Shown here piece by piece: positions 17,813-33,428 of a stretch of 64,000 bases of DNA (positions are counted from its first letter, which is position 1; each line of letters begins with the position of its first letter). The stretch comes from Octopus vulgaris (lineage: Eukaryota). The notes below the pieces were generated by a model. The model was not told where the DNA came from. It was given only the letters and a program-made list of their open reading frames with translations, and did no database searches. The translations under genes were made by a program, and so were the position numbers. The DNA is taken from contig OX597831.1 of assembly GCA_951406725.2 (NCBI GenBank), positions 50,716,001 through 50,780,000 of the forward strand, given 5' to 3'.

Positions 17813-18346
17813 AATATCAGAAAATTAGAATTTAGTTGTTTCCAGAGCAAGACGTCAGGAAGTATCAAGTCGGGGCATATTATGTTCTGAGGTTAAATGC
17901 CACAGAATTTAACTTTTCACCTTTTAAATCTTCGGGAGTCGATAAAATAAAATAATACGCAACGAATGATATCGGTTATAAGGAATACCATCGCTCACTT
18001 TGTCGAAGCTAAATGTCCAAAATACATCATTAGTAGTAAGTACCTTCTATGCAGAAATATGTATTATCAATACCACGAGATAGTGTTTGTTTGATATTGA
18101 TATTTTCTCTTTCCTCTTTTACTTGGTTCGGTCATTTGACTGCGGCCATGCTGGAGCACCGCCTTTAGTCGAGCAAATCGACCCCAGGACTTATTCTTTG
18201 TAAGCTTAGTACTTATTCTATAGGTCTCTTTTGCCGAACCGCTAAGTTACGGGGACGTAAACAACACACCGGCATCGGTTGTCAAGCGATGTTGGGAGGA
18301 CAAACAGACATACATACATACATACATACATACATACATACATACA

Positions 18347-18393
<47 letters not shown>

Positions 18394-18615
18394 TCAATAT
18401 AGGGTGGCAAAAAATTTCGCAGAATTTTTTTGCCACCAGCGACCTAGTGGGAAAAAAGTAAATAGTCATAGACCATTTATAAATTCAACAGCAAAATTAA
18501 GGAACGGCCATAATAGGCCATTCAACCCACTAGAAATAACAGCCAAGGCTTCAACCGCAAAACAATATTAATTCCGTAAACCAGGAGAAAATTTAAAAAA
18601 CATTTACCCTGTAAT

Positions 18616-18718
18616 ACTTTATACGATGCATCGTTTCGTCTATTCTTTAATGGTAAATCAACCTGATTAAATTAAATCAAGCTAATCTTCCATAGGCCAG
18701 TAGATTCATCAGTAAAGT
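18616..18718 (-). ncRNA. Type I hammerhead ribozyme motif (copy 1)
   Basis: Reverse complement of 18981-19083. Confidence 0.75.
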
Positions 18719-18980
18719 CAGCCAGATCGGGGCAGATATTTTCACGAGGCAGTTCCACTACTGTCTCGGCAATATCTGACCTAAAATTTTCAAATCATCG
18801 CACTCGCGCCAAATTTATCGGCAGCAAATATAAGCTGCCGATTCCATTACGGAATTAAACAGAAAATTCGTAATTAATCAATATAGGGTGGCAAAAAATT
18901 TCGCAGAATTTTTTTGCCACCAGATATTGCCGAGACAGTAGTGGAACTGCCTCGTGAAAATATCTGCCCCGATCTGGCTG

Positions 18981-19083
18981 ACTTTACTGATGAATCTACT
19001 GGCCTATGGAAGATTAGCTTGATTTAAATTAATCAGGTTGATTTACCATTAAAGAATAGACGAAACGATGCATCGTATAAAGT
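18981..19083 (+). ncRNA. Type I hammerhead ribozyme motif (copy 2)
   Basis: ACTTTA-CTGATGA-ATCTA...TAGAC-GAAA-CGATGCATCG-TA-TAAAGT: 6-bp stem I, palindromic stem III, GUA site; first pair of stem II is A.C. Confidence 0.75.
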
Positions 19084-19207
19084 ATTACAGGGTAAATGTT
19101 TTTTAAATTTTCTCCTGGTTTACGGAATTAATATTGTTTTGCGGTTGAAGCCTTGGCTGTTATTTCTAGTGGGTTGAATGGCCTATTATGGCCGTTCCTT
19201 AATTTTG

Positions 19208-19280
<73 letters not shown>

Positions 19281-19302
19281 TACGAATCTTTTTTCGGCAG
19301 TA

Positions 19303-19361
<59 letters not shown>

Positions 19362-19966
19362 TGTATGTATATATACGACGGGTTTCTTTCAGTTTCCGTC
19401 TACCAAATCCACTCTCAAAGCTTTGGTCGACCCGAGGCAATAGAAGATACTTAGCCAAGGTGCCACGCAGTGGGAATGAACCCCGAACCATGTGGTTGGT
19501 AAGCAAACTACTTACCACACAGCCACTCCTGCGCCTATGTTTATGCATATTTTAACACTATACGTTAATACGAAAACTTTCTCTAGACGAATGTCGCAGA
19601 TTTACAGGCGTTAAACACTATATCGCTTTAAGTATAATGTATATATAGATTCCTACATATGTGTGTGTGTGCGCGCATGCGTTTGTGCGTATGTGTGTGT
19701 TTGTGTGTGTATGCATGAAATTTAATTTTGCTCGCTGCAAATACATACATAACGAAGAAAATATATTTCCCACACAGAACCGCTCGAATTTGTCACCATC
19801 CAGACGACCCTGCTGCGTGATTTTGTATCCAAAATGTCATAATTCAATGTTCATATGCACTCGACAATCCTAACAGCTTACATTAACAATTACTACAAAC
19901 ACAACACTCTCACGCCTCACTCATACACATGCACACATACATACTCATACACATAAATATATAGAT

Positions 19967-20969: not shown

Positions 20970-23111
20970 ATACAACCTTCTTTTTGACTTTGACCTATCA
21001 GGTCCAGTTTTTAAGTTATTGAAATCCCTATAGTCACTATGTATGTATGTACGTCCAGTACACAGTGTTCGTTACCTTATTCTAATTCTAAGCTTTTTTT
21101 CTCTTTTCCTATACTTTTTAGATGTTGTGGTGGACTGAGCAATAGAAAATAAGGAAGATGTCCTCTTCCAGGAAGTGTTGCGTTAATTCTCCAAATGTGT
21201 TTTGTTATGTTTGTGAAGAATACACATTACCTGAAAATCAAAAAGACATCACTGACTTTGTTGAAAGAGCGTATATGGCATATTTCGGGGTCAAACTAGG
21301 AGACAAAGATAAATACTGGGCACCGCATAGTGTCTACAAACAATGTACAGAACATCCACGACAATGAGTTAAAGGGAGAATGAAAAACATGAGGTTTGCT
21401 ATACCAGTGCTATGGAGGGAGTCCTATAATCACCTGGACGACTATTATTTTTGTAAACTAAAGTTGAAGGGTATTAACCGGCAAAATCGACAGACGCTTG
21501 TCTATCCTAATCTTGCTTCTGCTTCCTGTTCCTGTCTTCTTTGTCTTGCCTCATATGACTTTACCCTCAACCAAAGAAGTTTCATCACCTGAAGATGACA
21601 CTAGAGCTCAAGACTTTTCAGTTGAGGCTTTACCACCGCTATTCTCTCACGTAGAGCTGAATGATTTAGTTCGCAACTTGAACCTCACAAAATATTCTGC
21701 AGAACTATTGGCTTCCCGACAGAAAAAGAAGAATCTTCTAGGGAATGGTATCTGTATAACTTTTTATTGCAGTCCACATGAAGCTTTCCTTTCTTTCCTC
21801 ACAAAAAAAGGAAGAGCTGGTTTACTGCAGGGATGTCAGTGGGCTTCTAAATAAACTTGCCATTGAGGAATACAAACCAGAGGAATGGCGCCTTTTCATA
21901 GACAGCTCTAAACGTAGTTTAAAATGTGTATCGTTACACAACGGAAATGTATGTGGTTCTGTCCCACTTGGCAACTCAAAATCTCTGAGGCAAAAATATG
22001 TAGAAATTAAGTTGGTTTTACAGACGATACTGTATCATGATCAGAAATGGGTTATCTGCGTTGACTTAAAGATGGTGAATTTTGTCATGGACAGCAATCT
22101 GGTTATACCAAATACCCATGCTTTCTTTGCATGTGGGACAGTAGAGACCGAGTAACACACTATGTTAAGAAAGACTGGCCACCAAAATAAACATGGTTCC
22201 ATGTAGAGCTGCCAATATATTGGAAGAACCCTTAGTTAAGCGAGATAAGATCACCCCACCCCTTTGCACATCAAACTCGGATTCATCAAGCAATTCGTCA
22301 AAACTCTTGATAAAAATGGTGAGTGGTTCATGTATATATGCAGTATATTTCCAGACTTGAAGATTGAAAAACTTAAAGCAGGGATTATTTTTGATGGACC
22401 ACAGATCCATAAGCTCTTGAAGGACACAAATTTTGTGAAAACGATGAGCGAAAATGAAGCATCAGCTTGGCTAGCCTTTGCAGAAGTAGTGCAAAATTTC
22501 CTTGGAGAACACAAAAGTGAAAACTATAAGGACCTTGTTACCATCTTGATATCAACTTTTCGTGATAATGGCGCGAATATCAATTTCAAAATGCATTATC
22601 TTTTTAGACATCTTGATTGGTTTCCTGAAAATCTCGTAGATGTTAGTGATGAACAAGGCAAACGATTCCATCAGGACATCAAGGAGATGGAAACTTGGCA
22701 CCAAGGATGTTGGGAAGCTGTGATGATGGCAGACTATGGCTGGTGTTTACAACGAGATACACCTGTTGCTCAACATTCACGGTGCACAAAGATACAGAAA
22801 TTCATTCCTTGAATCTTCTGCACTTGTTGAAAATGCACATTAGCAAAGATGTTTGCATCTTTGCCAATGTGCATGTTCAACTTTGAATTTTTATATGTAC
22901 TTTGTTTTATTTTGTGTTACGCTCTCTTTATTGATTCATATTATGTGCCTCTTGTATGAATAAAATACTTACTCTATCAGATCTAGTTTTCTGACTAGTT
23001 TCTGATAGAGAAAAACTGAAGTTATTTTTTTTAATTTAGCAGGCAAACCATTTAAGAATTCGTTGAAGTATTCCAGGCACCAGACAAAAACAATTTTTTT
23101 GTTGCCCAGTG
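20970..23111 (+). mobile_element. DNA transposon, probably Chapaev3 (CMC superfamily); left end uncertain
   Basis: Right terminus GTTGCCCAGTG followed by TTA; contains the transposase pseudogene. Confidence 0.7.
21158..22812 (+). pseudogene. Chapaev3-like transposase pseudogene (in-frame stop and several frameshifts)
   Basis: Consecutive ORFs: C..SPNVFCYVC, AYFGVKLGDKDKYWAPH, DDYYFC, WRLFIDSSKRSLK, ICVDLKMVNF, HIKLGFIKQFVK, KMHYLFRHLD.FPENL, VSDEQGKRFHQDIK, MMADY. Confidence 0.85.
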
Positions 23112-26439: not shown

Positions 26440-27487
26440 TTTTAAAGGGAGGAGATTAGTCGACACCCGACCCCAATACATGACTGGTATTTTGTTTTAA
26501 TGACTCTGGAAGAATGGAAAGCAACGTTAACTTCAGCTGGAATTGAACTCAGAACGTAAAGACTGGAAAGACCGATGCTCAAATGATTTTCCTAAATCGC
26601 ACTCTTCAACGTAATGTGAACTCGGAACGTGAAGACGGACGAAATGCTGCTAAGCATTTTACCCAGCGTAATAATGATTCTGCTAGCTCGCCGCCTTAAA
26701 CAAGGAAAATATTGGTTTCAAATTTTGGCTCAAGGCCGGATAGTTCACGGGTGGAGGTAAGTCGACTACATCTTGCACAGTACTCGACTGGTACTTAACT
26801 AAAAGAGACCGCAGGAATAAAAATGGAAGTTGTCCACAGCAGAGTTTGAATTCAGAACATGAAGACACACGAAATGCCACGAAGCATTTTGCCCGGCGTA
26901 CTAGCGATTCTTTTCTACTCTAGGCACAAGGCCCGAAATTTGGGTGGAAGGAGCCAGTCAATTAGATCAACCCCACTACGCAACTGGTACTTAATTTATC
27001 GTCCACGAAAAGATGAAAAGTAAAGTCAACCTCGGCGGAATTTATACGCAGAACGTAAAGACAGACGAAATACCGATTTCTTTACCACCCACAAGTGGCT
27101 ACACACAGAGAGGTCAAACAAGGACAGACAAACGGATTAAGTTGATTATATCGACCCCAGTGCGTAACTGGTACTTATTCAATCGACTCCGAAAGGATGA
27201 AAGGCAAAGTCGACCTCCGCGGAATTTGAACTCAGAACGTAGCGGCAGACGAAATACCTATTTCTTTACTACCTACAAGGGGCTAAACACAGAGGGGATA
27301 AACAAGGACAAACGGATTAAGTCGATTATATCGACTCCAGTGCGTAACTGCTACTTATTTAATCGACCCCGAAAGGATGAAAAGTTAAGTCGACCTCGGC
27401 GGAATTTGAACTCAGAACGTAGCGGCAGACGAAATACGGCTACGCATTTAGCCCGGCGTGCTAACGTTTCTGCCAGCTCGCCGTCTT
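26440..27487 (-). mobile_element. Head-to-tail cluster of SINE-B copies; young multimer at 26908-27487
   Basis: GAATTTGAACTCAGAACGT..GACGAAAT repeated several times; head at 27487. Confidence 0.88.
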
Positions 27488-32638: not shown

Positions 32639-33029
32639 ATTGTTGTATTCCGAGATGGTAATTGGGGGGGGGGGGCAAATAGGCACGTGCATTATATATT
32701 CGTTCTTCACTCTTTTAATACTGGTCTTATTTTTTATCTCCATTGTCAAGAAATCTTTCGTCGCACATCTCTGATCTCTTCAGTGACACTTTCTGTCCTC
32801 GAGTGTGCTCCTGCTCCGCTTAGTCCATTCTCGAATGGTGCTGAAGAGGTCACAGATGTGTGATGAAAGATTTCCAGAAAAGGGAAATGATTTAAAATAA
32901 GAACAGTAATAAATGAGTGAACAACGAATGTATAGTGCGAGAGTTTTTTGGGCCCCCAAAAATTACCATCCCGAAATACAACAATATCTGTTTCAACACA
33001 CGGTTTCACATCAAGAATCGTGCAGCACA
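32639..33029. repeat. Fold-back element (arms 32639-32788 and 32838-32985) with hammerhead-like motifs
   Basis: ATTGTTGTATTCCGAGATGGTAATT mirrors AATTACCATCCCGAAATACAACAAT; inner ends carry CTGAAGAG. Confidence 0.8.
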
Positions 33030-33428
33030 ACTCTTTTACTTGTTTCAGTCATTTGACTGCGGCCATGCTAGAACACCACCTTTTAGTCGAGCCAATCGAC
33101 CCAGAGGACTTATTCTTTGTAAGCCTAGTTCTTATTCTATTGGTCTCTTTTGCCGAACCGCTAAGTTACAGGGAAGTAAACATACCAGCATCGGTTGTCA
33201 AGCGATGTTGGGGGAACAAACACAGACACACAAACATATACACACATATATATATATACATATATACGAGGGGCTTCTTTCAGTTTCGGTCTACGAAATC
33301 CATTCAAAAGGCTTTGGTCGTCCTGAGGCTATAGTAGAAGACACTTGCCCAAGGTGCCACGCAGTGTGACTAAACTCGGAACCATGTGGTTCGTAAGTAA
33401 GCTACTTATCACACAGCCACTCCCACGC
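33030..33428 (-). mobile_element. SINE family A
   Basis: Full family match. Confidence 0.92.

Follow-up and report, generated by a model that had tools for sequence, protein, structure and literature searches.

A retrozyme-like hammerhead repeat of octopus genomes, probably copied into a (TA)n tract by a Penelope-like enzyme

A 64-kb stretch of Octopus vulgaris DNA (contig OX597831.1, positions 50,716,001 to 50,780,000; hereafter the window, in whose own numbering all positions are given) contains a SINE that has been parted by foreign sequence. What is this sequence, and by what route did it arrive? The host SINE's left half (18100–18306, + strand) shares 87–91% identity with the left halves of 10 further copies in the window, and its right half (19372–19540, +) shares 78–90% with the right halves of 10 further copies. 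The two halves are 1076 nt apart at this locus, versus 37–108 nt in 10/10 other paired copies in the 64-kb window. The comparison of SINE copies thus bears out a preliminary description of the locus, which had proposed an 823-bp insert between (TA)n arrays that splits a SINE into collinear halves, and it places the insert in the microsatellite middle of the SINE.

The insert is bordered by two strandless microsatellites, (CATA)n followed by (TA)n on the left (18307–18388) and (TA)n on the right (19209–19276); within such a run a target-site duplication is not readable. A second TA run and a 29-nt non-TA island of unexplained origin (19277–19305, strandless, between the two TA runs) separate the insert from the right SINE half. 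The island has no match in the repeat unit described below and no convincing match in the window, and four 10–11-nt motifs taken from it found no matching terminus among the consensi in the covered part of Craig et al. (PMC8557442). Possibly it represents a truncated end left by another TA-targeting insertion. Just outside both TA runs, about 15 nt of the flank 18336–18350 is the reverse complement of the flank 19355–19370, which may be low-complexity chance or a by-product of insertion.

The insert is built from a single 484-nt non-coding monomer (18387–18870, 36.6% GC, hammerhead sense on the − strand). Its first 53 bp (18387–18439, −), which contain a hairpin at 18403–18437 and whose outer end lies 235 nt downstream of the predicted hammerhead cut, recur at 18871–18923 (−) with 53/53 positions identical and a spacing of 484, forming a partial upstream unit of 0.11 monomer. 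By repeat comparison, the segment 18490–18778 (−) is duplicated as an inverted, 5′-truncated copy at 18921–19209 (+), whose outer end lies 132 nt downstream of the predicted cut; 288 of the 289 positions are complementary, the exception being 18671 versus 19028. The two arms are joined through a strandless CAG microhomology (18921–18923) common to the direct repeat and the inverted arm, and fold prediction places a further strong hairpin at 18817–18842 (−). The direct repeat, the inverted duplication with its single mismatch, the CAG joint, the two additional hairpins and the want of a recognisable protein are all as the preliminary description had them. Read head to tail, the unit has a longest stop-free stretch of 73 codons on the + strand and 49 on the − strand, and none of the eight stop-free frames of at least 150 codons in the window overlaps or adjoins it, so that no RT or GIY-YIG ORF is found there. 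The unit folds strongly (folding energy z = −7.2; 0/100 shuffles fold as well). No second copy of it was found elsewhere in the 64-kb window. Since the duplicated parts of the insert show 1 difference in 342 bases, the insertion is likely to be recent.

Other repeats and frames in the window are listed here for completeness. A 187-codon stop-free frame at 22249–22812 (+) has no Pfam match at E ≤ 0.1 and looks like a transposase-related remnant. A 184-bp unit present in 2.6 tandem copies at 26956–27437 presumably resembles another octopus SINE. At 32917–33369 (+), a SINE-derived pseudo-ORF has matches to three predicted octopus proteins, of which two belong to Octopus vulgaris and the third to O. 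bimaculoides; the matches mark the host as an octopus and suggest that these database entries are spurious translations of repeats.

The preliminary description had also placed a type I hammerhead in each arm. A strict descriptor run on both strands of the 64 kb returned two matches, one per arm: 18616–18718 (−) in the first arm and 18981–19083 (+, predicted cut after 19077) in the inverted arm. The same descriptor matched 3 of 20,000 dinucleotide-shuffled units. In the first arm, on the − strand, a 6-bp stem I (18718–18713 paired with 18621–18616) encloses the core CUGAUGA (18712–18706), a 68-nt stem II domain, GAAA (18637–18634), a palindromic stem III and GUA, with the cut predicted after GUA (18622). 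In the window copy an A-C mismatch lies at the foot of stem II; the commoner family allele at 18638 makes this pair A-U, versus the usual G-C. Rfam reported no match at the gathering score in the 64-kb window; at E ≤ 10 it gave 38 matches, none of them to a hammerhead family, and no hammerhead in the interval 18000–19700. The miss is probably due to the long stem II. When the monomer is folded as a circle, the structure of lowest energy conceals stem III, and imposing the hammerhead is 2.7 kcal/mol more costly. Self-cutting of the RNA by this hammerhead is predicted.

To what extent the unit is more than a single curiosity can be judged from public sequencing runs. Among 24 listed runs, all as contig data, part of the unit is present in 20 (10 studies, 4 organism labels), five of which hold at least half of its words; none of the unit-bearing runs is recorded as RNA, and one run (X11) that may be RNA is left out as evidence of expression. 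Contigs from four runs with three organism labels, probably from other individuals or species, were placed on 18387–18870. The unit is matched by 3228, 7340, 1104 and 156 contigs in the four runs, respectively, of which 674, 1109, 242 and 26 are at least 99% alike to it, and single contigs reach mean depths of 1161 and 2712, depths that are not copy numbers. Judged by these contigs, the family is abundant and has many genomic copies. The multi-copy, non-coding, hammerhead-bearing family that had been proposed from one locus is thus abundant in 4/4 runs.

The same contigs speak to the 484-nt head-to-tail unit. In 4/4 runs, position 18869 continues into the unit start, with A versus the window's G at 18870. 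The junction is crossed by the loose ends of 5, 24, 7 and 2 contigs, and its depth reaches 2691 in one run. The 484-nt period therefore belongs to the family as a whole and did not come from a single template jump at this locus, and the proposed unit length stands. Among the contigs listed for the four runs none spans the whole unit, and the insert locus itself amounts to 1.11 units. The share of contigs that continue into unlike sequence is 0–0.01, and 60, 428, 96 and 16 contigs run over the unit ends. The inversion joint is absent among the matches listed for the four runs (4 joints, 12 of 44 joint-letter rows and 24 of 231 loose ends), runs that may lack this insertion. Exact 23–26-nt patterns from the unit gave no matches in metagenome, viral or prokaryote contigs.

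By hand count, 25 of 40 listed substitutions are the majority allele in one run (X1), so the window copy belongs to a minority subfamily. The subfamilies are several percent apart, and the family occurs under four organism labels. The preliminary view of a young, recently active element accordingly applies to this insertion, with its one difference in 342 bases, but not to the family, which is not brand-new. One run (X3) also contains four internally deleted variants of the unit within 18407–18839, lacking 35, 51, 187 and 288 nt, each in one contig with a short side of 20–23 nt. One deletion (18604–18792) skips the whole hammerhead, in a contig of depth 287 whose short side is only 23 nt.

Variation within the family bears on whether the hammerhead fold is maintained. 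The substitution test used the 40 listed substitutions (21 more lie beyond the list). None of the 40 falls in the 13 core positions; 21 are at unpaired positions, 13 keep a pair and 6 break one, versus 12.6 pair-breaking changes expected at random (P about 0.014). The structure used was the one predicted for the window copy, and the contigs are least deep near the core, so that this test gives modest support to conservation of the fold. In stem I, the window has ACUUUA/UAAAGU, and the commonest variants, UUCUUA and UAAGAA, change three adjacent pairs on both sides; in a further variant pair G-C replaces A-U next to the core. The arms lie in separate contigs, and we infer that their variants are linked. 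Position N7 is U, A or C and position N17 is A or C across the family, and these are the positions that are free to vary in hammerheads. The contig variants thus indicate that the type I hammerhead fold is conserved in the family, with its catalytic core spared and stem I covarying. The contig at depth 287 that lacks the hammerhead counts against a strict need for the ribozyme.

These features recall the retrozymes of animals. Non-LTR retrozyme monomers measure 220–240 nt in coral, 350–390 nt in mussel and 330/350 nt in axolotl (Cervera and de la Peña, 2020, PMC7229834). Like them, the octopus unit is non-coding and low in GC (36.6%, the class lying under 45–50%; longest stop-free stretch 73 codons). 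It contains a type I hammerhead, identified by descriptor, spared core and stem I covariation, and it has many genomic copies, each DNA run yielding variant contigs in their thousands, with depths above 1000 for single ones, copy number aside. Members of the class are defined by at least two consecutive full hammerhead units and, when a target-site duplication is present, by a length of more than 4 bp. At the level of sequence, the unit reads as one that works like a metazoan non-LTR retrozyme, sharing the features of the class that can be read here, except proven arrays. In the literature searched we found no description of an octopus or cephalopod retrozyme or hammerhead family, and one could be listed in the supplements of PMC7229834 and of a 2026 preprint, which the search did not cover. 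For the giant squid genome 235 Hammerhead_1 matches were counted without analysis (PMC6962438), and the covered part of a 2026 repeat annotation of O. vulgaris reports 190 Penelope-like families and never mentions ribozymes (PMC13282606). Motifs of the unit have no match in the supplement of the latter paper, whose tables comprise just 5,371 characters. The 484-nt family may already sit unnamed in a repeat library.

How, then, did the unit enter the SINE? In insertions of Penelope-like elements (PLEs), a partial tandem stands next to an inverted, 5′-truncated copy, with a tail on one side only (Craig et al., 2021, PMC8557442), and a partial tandem with an adjacent inverted, 5′-truncated copy is what the insert contains. 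PLEs of the Hydra clade carry canonical hammerheads and insert into (TA)n (PMC8557442), which is also where the unit lies at this one locus. The unit has no ORF with the RT and GIY-YIG domains of an autonomous PLE. We consider it probable that the insert is a recent insertion of an abundant octopus 484-nt hammerhead family, a retrozyme-like passenger that was copied into (TA)n by a PLE enzyme. As (TA)n inserters in Octopus, the supplement of Craig et al. gives Hydra-1_Obim (Octopus bimaculoides), Naiad_Obim and Naiad_Ovul, and the same paper describes cephalopod Naiads as long inactive (PMC8557442). A search for the partner with 8 exact 9–14-nt motifs of the unit matched no animal PLE consensus in the covered part of this supplement, which holds few families and in which line breaks can hide motifs. 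One 10-mer of the unit matched two GC-rich entries in its Chlamys part (PMC8557442). The 3′ end of Hydra-1_Obim is unlike the unit by eye, and no shared sequence was found between the two.

Both arms run inward from a (TA)n run in cDNA polarity and meet 3′ end to 3′ end at CAG/CTG. This layout most likely reflects two cDNAs, started at internal RNA sites from two nicked target strands and joined head to head. The RNA, either a transcript that exceeds one unit or a circle closed by ligation, would be bound by a TA-targeting PLE protein, probably of Hydra type, whose endonuclease would nick both strands of the palindromic (TA)n. One nick, in the left microsatellite, would prime cDNA 1 internally, 235 nt downstream of the hammerhead cut, for a length of 537 nt (1.11 units); the other, in the right (TA)n, would prime cDNA 2 (the inverted arm) from another internal position, 132 nt downstream of the cut, for a length of 289 nt. 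The 3′ ends of the two cDNAs would then anneal via CAG/CTG and be filled in. We infer the two start sites from one locus. The two-cDNA model is preferred to a strand switch because it fits published PLE biochemistry better: the Poseidon PLE protein of Anolis carolinensis nicks and extends both strands in vitro (Frangieh et al., 2024, PMC11167929), starting at two internal sites downstream of the hammerhead, 30–40 nt apart (PMC11167929). The mobilisation by a PLE that had been proposed for this locus is supported by the partial tandem, the inverted truncated copy and the (TA)n target, which match PLE insertions (PMC8557442), while the single strand-switching cDNA proposed with it fits less well.

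The outer ends also constrain the template. Neither coincides with the hammerhead cut, and both arms cross the cut site intact, so the RNA copied was either a multimer left uncut or a circle that had been re-joined; a hammerhead-cut linear monomer was considered as template and is ruled out on the same grounds. The 53-nt redundancy is accounted for by an uncut linear multimer just as well as by a circle. For the one PLE tested in vitro, unprocessed RNA was the main template (PMC11167929). We place the uncut multimer slightly ahead of the circle, at little better than even chances. A more far-reaching version, in which a Hydra-type PLE enzyme would reverse-transcribe ribozyme-made 484-nt RNAs of the family directly in their circular form, with fixed internal starts on both nicked (TA)n strands, is possible though rather doubtful.

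The insert's two ends are offset by 103 nt, versus the usual PLE tail of 30–40 nt, a value taken from one locus. On a head-to-tail template, the coordinates put the start of cDNA 2 at 50 nt beyond the stop of cDNA 1. We take this arrangement to resemble the twin priming of L1, and it lends weak support to the two-cDNA model; no literature linking "twin priming" with Penelope was found. A separate observation concerns the hexamer GAAUUU, which occurs only twice in the unit (18869–18864 and 18486–18481, − strand), the outer ends of the insert lying 2 and 4 nt upstream of the two occurrences. About 1% of random end pairs share a hexamer in this way, the comparison was made post hoc, and the second GAAUUU is altered by the commoner family allele at 18483. 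The hexamer is a possible signal for the start of reverse transcription.

Several other histories could have left a similar trace. In one, a single reverse transcription would have gone 1.11 times round a 484-nt RNA circle, after which the cDNA end folded back at CAG/CTG, copied 289 nt of itself and joined the right target. This yields the same final sequence and accounts for arms that differ at 1 of 289 positions; the monomer is stable as a circle (−140.6 kcal/mol versus −106.7 ± 5.2 for 25 shuffles), and retrozymes of coral, mussel and axolotl yield abundant circles (PMC7229834). It requires, however, that the right end be joined in an extra step, and it gives no ground to expect the end of the inverted arm 50 nt past the first cDNA stop, a weak point given that we estimate the chance of such a coincidence at roughly 1 in 4. 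Priming on two strands at two internal sites is, moreover, what a PLE protein does in vitro (PMC11167929), and we regard the fold-back of a single cDNA as unlikely. A different possibility is that the unit is only the pseudo-LTR or 3′ end of a coding PLE, and the insert an ordinary 5′-truncated copy of it in tandem-plus-inverted form. The architecture is that of ordinary PLE insertions (PMC8557442), homology to PLE pseudo-LTRs is described for the retrozymes of Xenopus (Li, Clavereau and Pollet, 2026, bioRxiv 10.64898/2026.07.22.740005), and contigs do overrun the unit ends (60, 428, 96 and 16 in the four runs). Nevertheless, the head-to-tail junction found in all four runs argues that an ORF-less 484-nt form is amplified by itself, no ORF remnant exceeds 73 codons, and the Hydra-clade hammerheads in the supplement measure 80–100 nt with flanks and have short stem II loops (PMC8557442). 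This origin is improbable.

The family could also be real and the inversion an assembly artefact, or a later DNA rearrangement of the repeat between the TA runs. The joint missing from the listed matches and the 29-nt island adjoining the insert would be in keeping with this, and PLE tandem and inverted structures trouble assemblies according to Craig et al. (PMC8557442). Against it, the SINE halves stay collinear, the window contains no Ns, the arms differ at one site and meet at a 3-nt microhomology, and the layout agrees with a described biological pattern; the runs probably represent other individuals or species, and the joint was judged among listed contigs only. We think such an artefact quite improbable. 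Least credible, and in our view very improbable indeed, is the reading in which a hammerhead look-alike arose by chance in a plain satellite or in a DNA transposon of the non-autonomous MITE or Helitron type. A strong terminal hairpin, an AT-rich target and the silence of Rfam would suit it, whereas the rarity of the descriptor match among shuffles (3/20,000), the spared core with covarying stem I, and insert ends that form no terminal inverted repeat do not. The preferred reading thus remains a retrozyme-like passenger copied from two nicked strands by a PLE enzyme.

The mobilisation of animal retrozymes by PLEs has so far been inferred from shared hammerheads, co-occurrence and pseudo-LTR homology (PMC7229834; bioRxiv 2026.07.22.740005), and retrozymes have been argued to be non-autonomous PLE derivatives (Li, Clavereau and Pollet, 2026, bioRxiv 10.64898/2026.07.22.740005). 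In the same preprint, only one of nine predicted retrozyme dimers was cleaved in vitro, a result that counts against the reading preferred here. The present locus, where an ORF-less hammerhead unit bears the PLE insertion pattern, offers a testable case of retrozyme mobilisation by PLE machinery, and an abundant family in sequenced octopus genomes would allow ends, start sites and inversions to be mapped and circle to be weighed against multimer. If circles are indeed copied by a PLE enzyme, the insertions would be a genome-wide record of animal retrozymes moving via circular RNA with PLE machinery, so far a hypothesis. The class is already known, and the value to specialists is useful rather than surprising.

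Among known systems, the non-autonomous Chlamys PLEs such as MRC1 of Chlamydomonas (PMC8557442) are likewise non-coding PLE passengers with pseudo-LTRs and head-to-tail insertions. They differ in that an autonomous family generally has the same 3′ end as they do, whereas the search for an octopus partner gave no match. Hydra-clade PLEs, including Hydra-1_Obim, have in common with the octopus insert a (TA)n target, a type I hammerhead that lies close to the 3′ end and has a short palindromic stem III, and a partial tandem with an inverted, 5′-truncated copy; the octopus unit is distinguished by the lack of an RT/GIY-YIG ORF, a much longer stem II and the 103-nt end offset. A palindromic stem III and a long stem II have both been described for PLE hammerheads (PMC4209133). 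With Poseidon, the insert shares genomic ends that fall at two internal sites downstream of the hammerhead and not at the cut, and the priming of both target strands, but Poseidon is autonomous and its starts are 30–40 nt apart, whereas the octopus starts are deduced from one locus. In comparison with metazoan retrozymes, the octopus monomer of 484 nt is longer than the 150–450 nt reported for the group (PMC7229834) and lies inside the wider range of 51–972 nt (bioRxiv 10.64898/2026.07.22.740005); within its hammerhead, the stem II domain measures 68 nt and position 10.1–11.1 is A-U or A-C, and the copy, known here from sequence alone, consists of 1.11 units plus an inverted arm and not of an array. 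It nevertheless resembles the metazoan non-LTR retrozymes in its head-to-tail unit, which is non-coding, low in GC and equipped with one type I hammerhead, and further in its high copy, its strong fold and its proposed mobilisation by PLEs.
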